Shown: positions 3,764 to 32,656 of the stretch, piece after piece | Position numbering within the stretch: the stretch's first letter is position 1 | How the letters are laid out: each line of letters opens with the position of its first letter | Source: Gammaproteobacteria bacterium | GTDB lineage: Bacteria > Pseudomonadota > Gammaproteobacteria > Eutrophobiales > Eutrophobiaceae | Reading direction: 5' to 3' | DNA: 64,000 nt | NCBI GenBank assembly: GCA_965243205.1 | Contig: CBDEUK010000002.1 | Span: forward strand, 993,589-1,057,588 | Program-made: the position numbers and the translations under genes | The notes under the pieces: generated by a model | What the model was told of the DNA's origin: nothing | Seen by the model: only the letters and a program-made list of their open reading frames with translations | Databases searched by the model: none

Positions 3764-4644
3764 GATCAAATTATTCGCTCACTAAATTTTTTTTATTGAG
3801 CTTGGTAATTTTCACCATTACACAACCTATTAGCGGTAAAGCTGAAACGATGATGTTTGAAATCATCCCGTTGCAGCATAGTCTGCTTGAGGATGTATTA
3901 CCTGTTGTACAACCACTAGTCGTAGAAGGTGGTACTGTCACAGGAATGAACGATCAGCTAATCATTCGTACAACTCATTCCAATATGCTCGAAATCAAGC
4001 AAGTATTGCGTTCTATTGATACCCCACCTCGTCGGTTGATGATCTCAGTTAAACAAGACGTTAGTGGCAATTTTGCACGAAATGAACATGGGATCTCTGG
4101 ACGTTATAAAAGTGGTGATGTCACAGTTGGAACAGGACGTGACCGAGGTGATGGTGCTAGTGTCGCCATCCGTGATAAAGATGGCAATGTTCTGAGATAC
4201 AGAACTTTATCAACCGAATCGGATATCGACGATCGCAACACATTTAAAGTCCAAACCATTGCAGGGCAACCGGCCTTCATACAACAAGGCAGTTCTGTTC
4301 CTATCGCTAATCAACAAACTTTTGTCACTCCAGGCGGTGTGGTTGTTCAAAATGGTGTTGAATATCGTGATGTCACCTCTGGCTTTTATATCCTACCGCG
4401 AATTAATGGTAACCGCGTAACCTTATTCATCTCACCAAAACTACAAAAGGTAAACCCTTATGACAATGGTACGTTTGATCTGCAAAATATCGAGACCACT
4501 GCCAGCGGCTATTTAGGAGAATGGATTCAAATCGGTGGCATAGACGAAGATTTCAAAGGCAAAAACTCTCGTTATTTCTCCAGCAGCCGCAGCCAAAGCC
4601 AAGAAGCTCGACAAGTCCTCATAAAAGTCGACGAAATTTTATAA
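3760..4644 (+). CDS. secreted protein with secretin N-terminal-like domain
   Basis: Signal peptide, then a segment resembling secretin N domains (IPLQHSLLEDVLPVV...QLIIRTTHSNMLEIKQVLRSIDTPPRRL). No C-terminal secretin beta-domain. Confidence 0.5.
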   Translation: MRSNYSLTKFFLLSLVIFTITQPISGKAETMMFEIIPLQHSLLEDVLPVVQPLVVEGGTVTGMNDQLIIRTTHSNMLEIKQVLRSIDTPPRRLMISVKQDVSGNFARNEHGISGRYKSGDVTVGTGRDRGDGASVAIRDKDGNVLRYRTLSTESDIDDRNTFKVQTIAGQPAFIQQGSSVPIANQQTFVTPGGVVVQNGVEYRDVTSGFYILPRINGNRVTLFISPKLQKVNPYDNGTFDLQNIETTASGYLGEWIQIGGIDEDFKGKNSRYFSSSRSQSQEARQVLIKVDEIL

Positions 4645-29589: not shown

Positions 29590-29617
29590 TTGCATTCAAT
29601 TAAGTTATGCCTATAAT
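29590..29617 (+). promoter_or_regulatory. near-consensus sigma70 promoter (TTGCAT-16-TATAAT) with GC-rich discriminator
   Basis: Read directly from the sequence. GCGCGCC follows the -10 element. It sits 33 nt upstream of the divergent nucleotidyltransferase start. Confidence 0.5.
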
Positions 29618-29792
29618 GCGCGCCCATTATGAAACAAGAAACAATTAACACGCAAACGAACTTTATAATGTTGTCTCTAGAAAGCAATGTTAACAGACTT
29701 CATCGTGCCTATAAAAAACCGATAGGTGATGTAGCACATTAGATCAGGTTATCTAAAACATAGAGCCTGATAAAAATTATCATGGCTCAAAC

Positions 29793-29830
29793 AAAACCCC
29801 GATGAGCCGTGAGGACTTCGGGGTTTTTTA
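29793..29830. terminator. rho-independent terminator (CCCCGA...TCGGGG + T6), A-run on the other side
   Basis: Hairpin plus T-run. Closes a ~200-nt transcription unit started by the promoter at 29590. Confidence 0.6.
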
Positions 29831-29842
29831 TTGGAGAAAATA

Positions 29843-29971
29843 TGCCTATAGAAATAAGTAACAATTTTTTATATTTAAAAAATGATAGACGCATCAGATC
29901 TGAACATCCGTGCTGCTCTCAATGGATCGGTACGCCTGTAAAAAATGCTGATGAATATAAAACTACTTAGC
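29843..29971 (+). CDS. possible small ORF (42 aa) with good SD
   Basis: GGAGaaaatATG. No recognisable domain. May instead be part of a non-coding leader. Confidence 0.25.
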
Positions 29972-30028
29972 TTCTTGTAATGTTACGGGAGGCTAATGTT
30001 AAAGCCTTCTGGACTTAAAAATATAAAA

Positions 30029-30061
30029 GCCCGGTTGGCAAAAGCCAAACGGGCTTTTTTT
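30029..30061 (+). terminator. strong rho-independent terminator immediately upstream of the tRNA-like array
   Basis: 11-bp stem GCCCGGTTGGC/GCCAAACGGGC with AAAA loop and T7 run. Confidence 0.65.
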
Positions 30062-30062
30062 A

Positions 30063-30184
30063 TGGCATGTGCACCATAGATAGGTGAGCTGACTGTTAAT
30101 CAGTTGTATGCAAGTTACCTGCAAGGATGCAGGTAAGGGGCGTAAGCAGGAGCGGTAAGCTTTCAAATCTTGCCGTGCCAGCCA
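30063..30184 (+). ncRNA. tRNA-like element A: acceptor stem + D-arm + anticodon arm (GUU, Asn-like) + encoded CCA; T-arm replaced by an ~70-nt structured module
   Basis: Read from the sequence: 5' TGGCATG pairs with 3' CGTGCCA-G-CCA. D stem CACC/GGTG. Anticodon stem GCTGA/TCAGT with loop CTGTTAA. No TTCGA T-loop. Extra hairpin ACCTGCA-AGGA-TGCAGGT. Confidence 0.4.
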
Positions 30185-30192
30185 AATTGAAC

Positions 30193-30269
30193 GGATCGGT
30201 AGCTCAGTCAGGTAGAGCGATTGGTTGAAACCCAATGCGTCGGTGGTGCAAAGCCATCTCGATCCACCA
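30193..30269 (+). tRNA. tRNA-Phe(GAA)-like, degenerate T-loop, encoded CCA
   Basis: GGATCGG-TA-GCTC-AGTCAGGTA-GAGC... D-arm nearly identical to E. coli tRNA-Phe. Anticodon loop TTGAAAC. T-loop is TGCAAAG rather than TTCGAxT. Acceptor 7 bp then A-CCA. Confidence 0.55.
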
Positions 30270-30281
30270 ATTGATTTAAAT

Positions 30282-30501
30282 GGGCATGTTGGCAAATGGA
30301 TGCTACCACCTAAAACGGTTGCTGAAGTGGTCCGAGTAAAACCGGCAGTCGCCTAAGTTGTTAAACCAGCATGGTTGAGGATGCAGGTTAATGCTCTTGG
30401 TAAGCGGGTGTTAACTGGCGCGCGTTTCCAATGGTTTAACAAGTCAAGAGTAATGCCTTGATTGTGATTGTATGTGGGTTCGATACCCGTCATGTCCACC
30501 A
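30282..30501 (+). ncRNA. tRNA-like element C (220 nt): acceptor stem, D-arm, canonical T-arm and CCA, with an ~150-nt insertion between anticodon region and T-arm
   Basis: 5' GGGCATG pairs with 3' CATGTCC-A-CCA. T-arm GTGGG-TTCGATA-CCCGT. Stem ACCAC/GTGGT encloses a 17-nt loop. Insert contains the GGATGCAGGT motif shared with element A. Confidence 0.4.
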
Positions 30502-30512
30502 AATTAAGATAT

Positions 30513-30636
30513 ACGCCTATAGCTCAATGGCGAGAGCAACAGAATACGAATCCGTTAGGTGTAGGTCTCTTGCATGGATGCAAGAGAGGGGCGCGAGCAG
30601 GAAGCGACAAGCTTTCAACTCCTACTGGGCGTACCA
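30513..30636 (+). ncRNA. tRNA-like element B: acceptor stem + canonical D-arm + CCA, no T-arm, carries the same extra module as A
   Basis: 5' ACGCCTA-TA-GCTC-AATGGCGA-GAGC; 3' TGGGCGT-A-CCA. Hairpin TCTCTTGCA-TGGA-TGCAAGAGA followed by GGGGCGCGAGCAGGAAGCGACAAGCTTTCAA. Confidence 0.4.
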
Positions 30637-30652
30637 ATTTTAAATGTAGTAA

Positions 30653-30727
30653 TGGTCGTTAGCTTAATGGAAAAGCAGCTGCCTTTTAAGCAGCCAGATA
30701 TCCGTTCAAGTCGGATACGACCAACCA
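30653..30727 (+). tRNA. tRNA-Lys(UUU), canonical cloverleaf, encoded CCA
   Basis: Acceptor TGGTCGT/ACGACCA. D GCTT/AAGC. Anticodon stem GCTGC/GCAGC with loop CTTTTAA. T-arm ATCCG-TTCAAGT-CGGAT. Then A-CCA. Confidence 0.7.
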
Positions 30728-30741
30728 ATATAAAAGATTTT

Positions 30742-30827
30742 GTCGGTGTGGCGGAATTGGCATACGCACTGGTTTCAGAAACCAGCGTCTTTATGACATG
30801 CAGGATCGTAGCCTGCCACCGATACCA
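30742..30827 (+). tRNA. tRNA-Leu(CAG)-like (class II, long variable arm), degenerate T-loop, encoded CCA
   Basis: GTCGGTG-TG-GCGGAATTGGCATACGC is a Leu-type D-arm. Anticodon stem CTGGT/ACCAG with loop TTCAGAA. Variable arm GTC-TTTAT-GAC. T-stem GCAGG/CCTGC with loop ATCGTAG. CACCGAT-A-CCA. Confidence 0.55.
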
Positions 30828-30980
30828 AATGTTGTTTTATGAATCGAATTTATAAAACACAAAAGCGTTAGAGATAACATGTTTGAGAACAGCGGTTCAG
30901 GCTCGTGAGTTCCTGTCCGGTGCACTGAAGTTTGAATCACAAAGTGTATACCGTTCGATAAGGACATGCTTTGACACCAA

Positions 30981-31053
30981 GTGGATATAGCTCAGTTGGG
31001 AGAGCACCTGACTCATAATCAGATTGTCGAAGGTTCGATTCCTTCTATCCTCA
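30981..31053 (+). tRNA. tRNA with CAU anticodon (Met elongator or Ile2-lysidine type); no encoded CCA; one acceptor mismatch
   Basis: GTGGATA-TA-GCTC-AGTTGGGA-GAGC-A-CCTGA-CTCATAA-TCAGA-TTGTC-GAAGG-TTCGATT-CCTTC-TATCCTC-A. T2:T71 mismatch. Followed by GAAAAG. Confidence 0.6.
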
Positions 31054-31135
31054 GAAAAGTGGCGGAATGGTAAACGCACAGACCTTATAAGTCTGCGGGC
31101 AAAAGCCCTTGTGGGTTCGAATCCCACCTTTACTA
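31053..31135 (+). tRNA. class II (Leu-like D-arm, long variable arm) tRNA with anticodon UAU; abuts the previous tRNA; no CCA
   Basis: AGAAAAG-TG-GCG-GAATGGTAAA-CGC-A-CAGAC-CTTATAA-GTCTG-CGGGCAAAAGCCCTT-GTGGG-TTCGAAT-CCCAC-CTTTACT-A. A3:A70 mismatch. Confidence 0.5.
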
Positions 31136-31429
31136 CTAAGCCGATGTCGAAAGACATCATTACAACAGGGTGCCGTGAATATCCTGTTTATGAAAGATAA
31201 GCAGTCAGTATCTGGAACAACAATTTATTCATCATGATTAAAACCTGTGTTTAGGTAAGAACCTGTTTTATTACGTGACAGGAAATATTCGTCGTTAAAA
31301 AGGAAAACCACCAGGATAGGTGAAACGAATGATTCCACTTACTTAATTAAAACAGAATATTCAAACGTAAACCCGTTTTAGTTGTGTCAGGTGTCCTGTC
31401 TTTATTAACTATATAAAAGGAGAAATTTA

Positions 31430-32572: not shown

Positions 32573-32656
32573 TGATGAACTGAGATCAACCCATCAAATT
32601 TGAAAGGTTCGGGGAATTGGCCCCGAACCGCTTATTAATATAAATGGAGAAATACA

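Follow-up and report, generated by a model that had tools for sequence, protein, structure and literature searches.

Introduction

Non-decoding mimics of tRNA are known from bacterial RNA-repair loci, an example being YrlA, a tRNA-like Y RNA encoded in the RtcB RNA-repair operon rsr-yrlBA-rtcBA of Salmonella. Cyanobacteria have tandem arrays of tRNA genes (L-arrays) whose regulation is shared with that of rtcB, and it has been suggested that they serve as a "sponge for toxin RNases" (PMC8421152). YrlA has likewise been proposed to act as a competitive inhibitor of anticodon nuclease, and RtcR, the activator of the Rtc operon, is activated by tRNA fragments (PMC7790460). In this study, we analyzed 64,000 nucleotides (nt) of a gammaproteobacterial chromosome (contig CBDEUK010000002.1 of assembly GCA_965243205.1, positions 993,589 to 1,057,588; this whole stretch is called the window, and positions are counted from its first nt). 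Nine tRNA-shaped RNA genes lie there in tandem on the + strand at 30063-31136, directly upstream of the genes for a slipin, which is a protein of the SPFH type, and the RNA ligase RtcB. Our observations on the anatomy, synteny, covariation and non-decoder character of this array establish that a conserved, structured, non-decoding tRNA-mimic module is physically tied to the slipin gene and, usually, to rtcB. Its core consists of a structured RNA, element X, followed by two tRNA-like units, tRNA-like 1 and tRNA-like 2. We tentatively read the array as the RNA part of an Rtc-type RNA damage/repair locus whose core is a non-decoding tRNA mimic, and all of the rival explanations weighed below were rated lower.

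Among described systems, the array is most like the YrlA-type mimics and the rtcB-linked tRNA arrays, but it is a member of neither because there is no Ro60 gene, the YrlA model scores far below threshold, the array is much smaller than an L-array and it is anchored to X and slipin. With YrlA it shares the encoding of a non-decoding tRNA mimic in an RtcB RNA-repair operon. However, no match to YrlA (RF02553) was found by Rfam between 29800 and 31400, even at E<=10, and in the related locus L210 the junction of tRNA-likes 1 and 2, where a T arm is followed by a D arm, matched the model weakly (35.1 bits versus a threshold of 69), a kind of hit that the authors of the YrlA work describe as a tandem-tRNA artefact. 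Membership in the YrlA family also asks for a Ro60/TROVE gene within ~4 kb and none was found near the array. Nine flanking open reading frames (ORFs) of 142-541 amino acids (aa), between 25455 and 35708, had other Pfam domains or none, shorter ORFs being outside that scan, and no TROVE domain occurred in 10 of the window's largest ORFs. In addition, the mimics described here form complete cloverleaves and have a distinct element, X, in front of them, and their partner gene encodes slipin.

The cyanobacterial L-arrays are similar to the array in being composed of tandem same-strand tRNA genes with short spacers and non-canonical members near, or co-regulated with, rtcB (PMC8421152). They are also similar in their proposed RNase sponge role and in their association with an HNH gene, as in the related locus L080. 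They differ in having 20-43 genes with a broad anticodon set and in their horizontal spread, whereas the loci studied here have two to nine units anchored to slipin and X. If only tRNA-type units are counted, there are six or seven in the window and two to seven in its relatives versus tens of genes in an L-array. A further difference is that these loci have hypervariable or impossible anticodons and large structured RNAs interspersed among their units.

Three other systems have more limited likenesses to the array. GOLLD RNA (RF02032), which is known to lie next to tRNAs, heads the same array in L210, where it contains an embedded tRNA-like, although the window itself is without GOLLD; no description of GOLLD in a chromosomal RtcB/slipin context was found in the literature searched. 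The compact tRNA clusters of phages such as T4, T5 and the mycobacteriophages are accompanied by small stable RNAs and tied to tRNA-cleavage conflicts, in which nuclease-resistant phage tRNAs take part. In contrast, the window's array is chromosomal with no phage match, and its members look unfit for decoding rather than like resistant replacements. Transfer-messenger RNA (tmRNA) resembles one member of the array, unit B, in its acceptor (G3-U70, A73 and CCA), its T arm, a D arm of reduced size and the presence of a large internal domain, but unit B has 220 nt versus ~360 nt and no conserved tag frame. In E. coli, tmRNA was reported to be the most frequent ligation target of RtcB (PMC9650030). 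The module of X and tRNA-likes, the T-loop insert module and unit B are apparently undescribed, although an earlier mention of tRNA genes or Band-7 proteins in RtcB neighborhoods is possible.

Organization of the array

ARAGORN called five tRNA genes in the entire 64 kb, all on the + strand between 30193 and 31136, and five units passed the gathering score of the Rfam tRNA model (RF00005, 29 bits) with E-values of 1e-13 to 1e-7 (Table 1). Together the two programs identified six tRNA-type units, with the UAU unit called by ARAGORN only; units A and B and element X, which neither program called, were added by direct reading of the sequence. The order of the nine elements is A, Phe, B, C, Lys, Leu, X, CAU (tRNA-like 1) and UAU (tRNA-like 2). 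Such an array is far beyond chance, given the Rfam E-values and the clustering upstream of slipin of the ARAGORN calls in related loci. An earlier note, made from the letters of the window, had described a tandem array of at least eight tRNA and tRNA-like genes. All eight of its units are present and the array is real, but the note had skipped positions 30828-30980 and so overlooked a ninth CCA-ending element, X. Its count of six units with an encoded N-CCA end (A, Phe, B, C, Lys and Leu) and its spacing of 8-16 nt were both borne out by direct reading, and the CAU and UAU units, whose acceptor stems are imperfect, abut with no spacer between them.

The T loop is intact (U54-U55-C56...A58) in the Lys, CAU and UAU units and in unit B, but not in the Phe, Leu, A and C units. 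The degenerate T loops that the note had reported for Phe (UGCAAAG) and Leu (AUCGUAG) reappeared in the Rfam alignments, and those of A and C are interrupted by inserts. The most canonical member is the Lys(UUU) gene. Most array members look unfit for decoding, as the note had suspected for several of them, and to its grounds can now be added that the anticodons of orthologous slipin-proximal units are hypervariable and often impossible. An Rfam search over the array at E<=10 returned, apart from tRNA, sub-threshold noise only (skipping-rope, 23.8/36.7; tmRNA_permuted, 20.1/47; His_leader, 26.2/49, the last over a terminator).

Table 1. Positions of the array units and of the features around them in the window
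Feature	Position	Strand	Evidence	Remarks
Divergent Pol-beta-type nucleotidyltransferase (NTase), 314 aa	28613-29557	-	Pfam NTP_transf_2, 2.4e-05	
Putative sigma-70 promoter	29590-29625	+	Sequence reading, conservation	
Leader 1	29629-29830	+	Reading, fold	38-codon ORF (29629-29745), then intrinsic terminator 1 (29794-29830)
Leader 2	29841-30061	+	Fold	Ends in intrinsic terminator 2 (30026-30061)
Unit A, Asn(GUU)-type tRNA-like	30063-30184	+	Direct reading	G-CCA end
Phe(GAA)-type tRNA-like	30193-30269	+	ARAGORN; Rfam tRNA, 54.5 bits	A-CCA end
Unit B, structured RNA	30282-30501	+	Direct reading	220 nt
Unit C, Arg(ACG)-type tRNA-like	30513-30636	+	Rfam tRNA, 40.9 bits (30513-30633)	A-CCA end
Lys(UUU) tRNA gene	30653-30727	+	ARAGORN; Rfam tRNA, 65.2 bits	A-CCA end
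Leu(CAG)-type class II tRNA-like	30742-30827	+	ARAGORN; Rfam tRNA, 44.8 bits	A-CCA end
Element X, structured RNA	~30875-30979	+	Covariance model R1, 75.1 bits	Ends ACACCA
tRNA-like 1 ("CAU")	30981-31053	+	ARAGORN; Rfam tRNA, 65.3 bits	U2-U71 mismatch; no CCA
tRNA-like 2 ("UAU")	31053-31136	+	ARAGORN only	No CCA
Conserved slipin 5' untranslated region (UTR)	31137-31429	+	Fold, -17.1 kcal/mol, z -3.65	
Slipin/SPFH protein, 380 aa	31430-32572	+	Pfam Band_7, 1.7e-26	
HslV/proteasome-beta-like Ntn hydrolase, 197 aa	32657-33250	+	Pfam Proteasome, 2.5e-06	
RtcB RNA ligase, 398 aa	33278-34474	+	Pfam RtcB (PF01139), 7.5e-134	

The conserved core module

A scan of one genome per species yielded 80 loci (L004-L083) from Gammaproteobacteria and some Betaproteobacteria with slipins 42-64% identical to that of the window, and eight closer relatives (L001/L002, L003, L210 and L307-L310) have slipins that are 74-86% identical. 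An ARAGORN survey of 83 of these loci (L004-L083 and L001-L003) revealed that 78 have one to six tRNA-like genes on the slipin strand no more than 750 nt upstream of slipin. A total of 134 calls were made in the relatives, 111 of them in that 750-nt zone and 21 further upstream on the same strand, with just two elsewhere in 716 kb. Two gene orders were found: in one, the tRNA-likes are followed by slipin and then RtcB, and in the other a divergent rtcR is followed by RtcB, the tRNA-likes and slipin. RtcR is present in 27 related loci. In all eight close relatives the order X, tRNA-like 1, tRNA-like 2, slipin is retained, whereas the part upstream of it differs. The link to RNA repair that the earlier note had listed among possible roles thereby has strong contextual support, as the array is followed by same-strand genes for slipin, the HslV-like protein and RtcB, and the module recurs in nearly all related loci. 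Two other suggestions of the note, that the array might be strain-specific or the relic of a mobile tRNA island, are not supported for the core, since X and two tRNA-likes are conserved and fixed in position across ~80 loci and the window is housekeeping chromosome.

Element X sits immediately before tRNA-like 1 and is composed of a T-arm-like hairpin (CAGG-loop-CCUG), a bulged helix and an enclosing stem, with an end consensus of (G/A)ACACC(A). In 46 upstream regions, iterated nhmmer searches located it immediately 5' of the first tRNA-like. Two helices with 13 pairs, the hairpin CAGG-UUCnnnnn-CCUG and the bulged helix, were tested on an alignment of 23 sequences (A2). In that alignment 96.3% of cells pair, versus 81% after shuffling and 16-44% after sliding, and compensatory changes occur in 7 of the 13 pairs. 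The covariation score was 0.53 compared with 0.23 in the control, and the observed value was reached in none of 500 shuffles. The structure of X is thus supported by covariation. A covariance model, R1, found X in 75 of 89 loci (893 kb), exactly once in each, always on the + strand and at the expected place, and five further weak matches were obtained with the filters off. X matched no Rfam family, and R1 with its filters off gave no match in the 5' UTR of enteric slipin genes.

Conservation in the slipin-proximal tRNA-likes extends to the D arm (UAGCUCA..GGUAGAGC), the T arm (GGUUCGAnUCC) and the anticodon stem, and covariation is seen in the acceptor stems. Fifty-six BLAST matches to tRNA-like 1 were obtained in related loci. 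tRNA-like 2 has a long variable arm (GGGC-AAAA-GCCC) and a weak A/U acceptor stem. It is 87% identical to its counterpart in L308 (2329-2410), which has the anticodon CAU, and the part of it that is retained in distant loci is the variable-arm hairpin with the T arm. The 111 calls upstream of slipin have 37 different "anticodons", including UUA (a stop), AUU, AAA, AUG, ACA and AAG, and 15 of the calls have anticodons of 2 or 4 nt. A34 in bacterial tRNAs is essentially limited to Arg-ACG. U33 is present in 72% of the proximal calls and CCA is encoded in 28 of 107 distinct sequences. Even between relatives with slipins 74-86% identical the anticodons of the two units change (CAU/UAU in the window, CAU/UUA in L001, UGU/UUG in L003, CAU/AAG in L307, UCG/CAU in L308, GU/UGU in L309, and a 2-nt "UC" in L210, whose second unit ARAGORN did not call), with the remainder of each unit ~80% identical. 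On these sequence features we judge that the slipin-proximal tRNA-likes are not decoders, because their anticodons are hypervariable and include stop, A34, 2-nt and 4-nt types, U33 is found in just 72% of them and CCA is mostly missing.

These features bear on a simpler explanation, that the array is a spare-tRNA operon for translation under stress in the manner of the cyanobacterial L-arrays, with a few members decayed. The Lys-UUU gene, with 65 bits and a canonical T loop, is what such an operon would contain, six units encode CCA, and arrays co-regulated with rtcB help survival under translational stress (PMC8421152). We nevertheless consider a spare-tRNA operon distinctly unlikely, as the T loop is replaced or interrupted in four of the six tRNA-type CCA-ending units, the slipin-proximal units have stop, A34, 2-nt and 4-nt anticodons and in most loci no CCA, and the non-canonical T loop of the Phe unit is conserved rather than decaying.

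Add-on units in close relatives

Upstream of X the close relatives vary considerably. L001 has the order Phe, Arg-ACG, Lys, Leu, X, CAU, UUA, and L003 has Leu, X, UGU, UUG. L210 has a GOLLD RNA with an embedded Asn-AUU, then Asn-GUU, Phe, Asp, Arg-ACG, Lys, a 74-codon ORF, X, the "(UC)" unit and tRNA-like 2, and L307-L309 have X and two tRNA-likes only. In the window's lineage the add-ons resemble Asn, Phe, Arg-ACG, Lys and Leu tRNAs, to which unit B is added, and these units are tRNA-derived with their elbows disabled. Across all of the loci, array membership comprises Asn, Asp, His, Tyr, Arg-ACG, Lys, Gln, Glu, Phe, Leu-CAG and Met. The orthologues of the Phe unit in L001 and L210 are 95% and 91% identical to it, respectively, and both keep its odd T loop. 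Retention of this loop in three lineages at such identities argues for selection rather than decay, as neutral decay predicts otherwise. The Lys unit is 95% identical to its orthologue in L001 and 83% to that in L210, and the Leu unit 88% and 76% to those in L001 and L003, the T loop being canonical in L003.

Fast turnover between relatives is confined to this upstream part of the array, and the add-on insertions all lie precisely between the terminator and X. The turnover could be taken to mean that the add-on part derives from a mobile tRNA island or prophage inserted beside the rtc locus and is now decaying and functionless, and GOLLD RNA, which is usually phage-associated, at this site in L210 and an HNH-type ORF within the array of L080 would be in keeping with such an origin. 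We find a mobile remnant quite improbable, however. The window is core chromosome, with no flanking integrase or phage genes among its scanned ORFs, and orthologous units remain 83-95% identical, odd features included. In addition, the stems of the T-loop inserts of units A and C show compensatory changes, and the precise placement of every insertion is hard to reconcile with a decaying remnant. An origin from a phage, E. coli or a plasmid was rejected, megablast having given no match to the array in phages or to the locus in E. coli.

The GOLLD RNA of L210, whose slipin is 78% identical to that of the window, was identified at 1619-2105 with 178.6 bits versus a threshold of 150, and it probably starts at ~1210. 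In the window there was no Rfam match to GOLLD and no BLAST similarity to the L210 copy. At 7080-7200 in L003, a CCA-ending element (...GGUUCGAGUCCUGCCGGGCAUACCA) with a large palindromic interior, not called by any tRNA finder, occupies the place of the relatives' Arg-ACG unit. In L080, an ORF of HNH type (CxxCGG...H..P...GG...N...C..CN, recognized by eye) is situated at 777-1340 between the tRNA-like array and X.

Units A, B and C

Units A and C are two tRNA-likes of one unusual design. In unit A the acceptor stem has 7 bp, the loop of the D arm is missing GG and the anticodon loop is CUGUUAA, and the T stem (GCAAG/CUUGC) encloses a structured insert of 54 nt at 30115-30168; the fold of the unit has a z of -4.5. 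Unit A is the orthologue of the Asn-GUU units of L210 (2114-2188, 87% identity over the 5' 54 nt) and L080 (386-457), which are free of the insert. In unit C the T stem (GUAGG/CCUAC) encloses 55 nt at 30566-30620, and in the Rfam alignment the unit is an entire tRNA whose T loop contains 54 inserted nt. From its sequence, including an identical anticodon loop (AAUACGAAU), unit C is the orthologue of the insert-free Arg-ACG units of L001 (785-859) and L210 (2376-2451). Since these orthologues have ordinary T loops, the 54- and 55-nt segments are T-loop insertions. Both inserts consist of a 9-bp hairpin (UUACCUGCA/UGCAGGUAA in A and UCUCUUGCA/UGCAAGAGA in C), GGG-GC-GNRA-GC and a second hairpin, GGA(A)GC-GNNAA-GCUUU(C), and their folds have z values of -3.3 to -4.5. 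On direct reading, the 9-bp hairpin has three compensatory double changes, and the T stem around the insert has two.

The exact placement of the inserts within the T loop, in tRNA homologues that are complete in other respects and have insert-free orthologues, raises the question of whether A and C are intron-containing pre-tRNAs from which the insert is excised and whose exons are joined by the adjacent RtcB, which would be bacterial protein-dependent tRNA splicing. RtcB is the tRNA splicing ligase of archaea and metazoa. Splicing is nonetheless highly improbable here: no bulge-helix-bulge was seen at the junctions on direct reading, a splicing endonuclease was not found, there was no match to a known ribozyme family in Rfam, and unit A is without the D-loop GG as well.

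A search with the pattern GCAGGA(N)GCGNNAAGCTTTC found two matches in the window and none in 85 related loci, pattern scans being a weak search. It also gave four matches in viral contigs and at least 120 in metagenome contigs. We rejected the latter two groups as further copies of the insert and attribute them to chance, since the flanking motif was missing among the matches listed.

Unit B differs from the other members in that a large internal domain replaces the anticodon arm. Its tRNA-Ala-like acceptor (G3-U70, A73, CCA) is combined with a D-like arm and a canonical T arm, GGGUUCGAUACCC, and these together are the full identity set for AlaRS. The sole homologue of unit B, at 72% identity, was found by BLAST in L079 (4169-4389), a Thiotrichaceae metagenome-assembled genome, and an nhmmer profile of B matched L079 only. 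The L079 copy is placed between rtcB and X, in an operon under RtcR control. Features common to both copies are G3-U70, A73, CCA, the D-like arm and the T arm GGGUUCGA(U/A)(A/U)CCC, and RNAalifold predicts 54 common pairs, 11 of them with compensatory changes. A 15-mer from the search for B, GGTTGAGGATGCAGG, was matched in 96 viral contigs. As a tmRNA, unit B was rejected because ARAGORN made no tmRNA call, the Rfam tmRNA model gave 6 bits versus a threshold of 47, and no tag frame is conserved, the window's GCA-GUC-GCC-UAA having no counterpart in L079. Unit B is thus tmRNA-like at its ends only.

In the Competibacter group (L009-L027), a lone tRNA-like at ~4470-4560 has the acceptor GGAAAG/CUUUUCC with G3-U70, A73 and CCA, and thus has Ala identity whatever its "anticodon", like unit B. 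The sequence AGGAUGCAGGU is common to unit B (30380-30392) and the insert of unit A (30124-30136), followed in both by GGUAAGC further on, and unit C has UGGAUGCAAG; the shared sequence may be a protein-binding motif, a product of recombination within the array, or chance.

Proposed function

A role for the array as decoys or substrates, which the earlier note had listed, is plausible, and we infer that its RNAs are expressed, processed, cleaved, repaired and bound by protein as follows. The core would be transcribed with a soluble cage-type slipin (stomatin/vault-like) and, in most lineages, with RtcB, and in the window's lineage the transcript would be extended at its 5' end by the Asn-GUU, Phe-GAA, Arg-ACG, Lys-UUU and Leu-CAG units. 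After read-through of two terminators, cutting by RNase P and RNase Z would release CCA-ending species of 75-220 nt. These RNAs would retain the anticodon arm and acceptor stem that nucleases recognize, while loss of the T-loop elbow, which is needed for EF-Tu and the ribosome, would keep them out of translation. As decoys or sentinels they could absorb cleavage, and RtcB could then rejoin the halves with 2',3'-cyclic-phosphate and 5'-OH ends. Where a species has RtcR, these halves might in addition contribute to the inducing signal. Slipin, for its part, may scaffold or enclose the array RNAs.

The decoy or sentinel function is suggested by a membership resembling nuclease targets, by the sponge role proposed for rtcB-linked arrays and by the competitive-inhibitor role proposed for YrlA. 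The Asn-GUU, Phe-GAA, Arg-ACG, Lys-UUU and Leu-CAG tRNAs are among those that anticodon nucleases such as colicins E5 and D, PrrC, PARIS and VapC typically cleave, and the membership of arrays across loci presumably overlaps the classic targets of these enzymes.

Several points weigh against the array being the RNA part of an Rtc-type locus. Competibacter loci keep X, the tRNA-like and slipin without an adjacent RtcB, so that the tightest partner of the RNA module is slipin. The two strong terminators before the array could leave it silent most of the time, and the Lys-UUU gene looks fully functional and could be a spare tRNA. Of the components of the Rtc operon RtcB is present, whereas the divergent sigma-54 activator RtcR, with its CARF domain, was not found in the window by tblastn with two RtcR proteins, and no nuclease gene was identified in the window.

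A bolder proposal, which we consider doubtful, is that X and the tandem tRNA-likes are the RNA subunit of an unrecognized bacterial ribonucleoprotein, a slipin counterpart of Ro60-Y RNA, whose scaffold would be a soluble slipin cage of the vault/stomatin type working together with RtcB. The hypervariable "anticodon" and the add-on mimics (unit B with its Ala identity, the T-loop insert modules and, in a relative, GOLLD) would then be diversifying baits that sense or absorb tRNA-targeting toxins, with the broken RNAs handed to RtcB.

The significance of the locus lies in a tRNA-mimic module, X with one or two tRNA-likes in which the anticodon can vary freely, being a near-constant companion of slipin in ~80 loci. 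It bears on the physiological substrates and partners of bacterial RtcB and on the role of slipins of the PA4582 type in rtc loci. It also makes several ideas testable: tRNA decoys or sentinels against anticodon nucleases, slipin as an RNA-binding cage, and a role for giant RNAs of the GOLLD type. A reduced slipin locus in E. coli, described below, provides a tractable system.

Transcription signals and the slipin 5' UTR

The putative promoter upstream of the array consists of TTGCAT, a 16-nt spacer and TATAAT, followed by a G+C-rich discriminator, GCGCGCCC, of the stable-RNA type, and it is conserved in L001, L003 and L210. A scan for consensus promoters made no call at this position, where the -35 box matches at 3/6 only, and we infer promoter function from the sequence and its conservation. 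The hairpins of the two terminators that follow are strong (-18.1 kcal/mol, z -3.1, with a U run after it, for terminator 1; -20.6 kcal/mol, z -4.0, for terminator 2). Because unit A begins 2 nt past the U run of terminator 2, the array would be transcribed only by read-through. The arrangement of tandem terminators before the first tRNA-like is conserved in L001, L003 and L210, which suggests that read-through is regulated. Leader 1 is 79% identical to that of L001 over 139 nt. Conservation between relatives does not extend to the body of leader 2, and on that ground this leader was rejected as a riboswitch.

The 38-codon ORF of leader 1 (MKQETINTQTNF...PIGDVAH) starts ~11 nt past the -10 box and would be near-leaderless. 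Both L001 and L210 also have its ATGAA start and a QELRD-like stretch, and it could encode a small protein or be merely a conserved initial transcript.

Downstream of the tRNA-likes, the slipin 5' UTR is composed of a hairpin at 31143-31158, a helix at 31164-31188 (ACAACAGGGUGCC...) and the block GUGUCAGGUGUCCUGUC at 31386-31402. It is 76% identical to that of L001, and L003, L210 and L307 have blocks in common with it. A further 250-450 nt of conserved UTR lies 3' of the tRNA-likes. A reduced slipin locus is present in 1632 of 5426 complete E. coli genomes (~30%). This enteric locus has slipin and an NTase gene, in front of which are a sigma-54 promoter (TGGCACG-N4-TCGCA in E. coli and TGGCA in Citrobacter) and a ~300-nt UTR whose T-arm hairpin (GGGUUCGAUUCCC) stands alone (examples are at 5680-6003 in L084 and at 5680-5995 in L085). 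In Citrobacter the locus adjoins rtcR, and RefSeq has no RNA annotated at the enteric slipin locus.

A further alternative is that the tRNA-likes are cis-acting parts of the slipin/rtcB mRNA, either as "punctuation" for RNases P and Z or as a 5' UTR setting stability or translation. They are always in the slipin 5' UTR or between rtcB and slipin on the same strand, they are followed by a further stretch of conserved UTR, and enteric loci retain a lone T-arm hairpin in a sigma-54-driven UTR. A cis-acting role is unlikely in our view, since a processing signal needs no conserved D arm, anticodon stem and T arm nor a covarying X, and it would leave the CCA-ending add-on units, unit B and GOLLD at the same site unexplained.

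Neighboring proteins

The window is ordinary chromosome of ~35% G+C, which encodes FTHFS, enolase, CTP synthase, SulP and Tag. Its slipin is the orthologue of PA4582 of the P. aeruginosa rtc locus, one of its homologues carrying that name, and PaFlo8 has been reported inside the same locus. An AlphaFold model of the slipin (predicted local distance difference test score, 76) has no membrane helix, and consists of three N-terminal beta repeats, the SPFH domain and a long helix. The best matches found by Foldseek were the cages of stomatin, HflK/C and prohibitin, with E-values of 1e-15 to 1e-9 for matches including the major vault protein (MVP). MVP gave the longest alignments (~450 columns). 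The TM-scores of the matches were low (0.34-0.40). The vault particle, composed of MVP and vault RNA, is an analogy only: here too small structured RNAs have as their neighbor a gene for a putatively cage-type SPFH-fold protein with N-terminal beta repeats, but the slipin best matches stomatin and HflK/C.

The accessory gene that accompanies slipin varies between loci. In the window and L308 it encodes the HslV-like protein, which has weak NCBIfam HslV matches. Enterics, L055 and L079 have an NTase instead, Cellvibrio has a Kelch-like protein, and 12 slipin/RtcB loci have a protein of 303-319 aa. The last of these has no Pfam, NCBIfam or PADLOC match (examples are at 2902-3813 in L001, 5216-6175 in L210 and 7592-8527 in L035). 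In L001 and L210 it lies between slipin and RtcB, the slot of the window's HslV-like protein, to which it is unrelated. PADLOC found nothing for slipin, the HslV-like protein or RtcB, and gave a weak PDC-S09 match for the window's NTase only. The ORFs adjoining RtcB in the window are a 77-codon ORF and one for a polysaccharide lyase.

A homologue of the window's NTase, at 62% identity, occupies the same position in L001, and the link of this protein to the locus is loose because the adjacency is limited to close relatives. The NTase whose gene comes after slipin in E. coli, Citrobacter, L055 and L079 is an unrelated one. The window's NTase was rejected as a homologue of this enteric, slipin-linked protein, to which it has no detectable homology, and no relative was found in the PDB. 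Between the slipin and HslV-like genes, at 32606-32629, there is a G+C-rich hairpin with a weak T tail which may be a partial terminator or a processing site within the operon.

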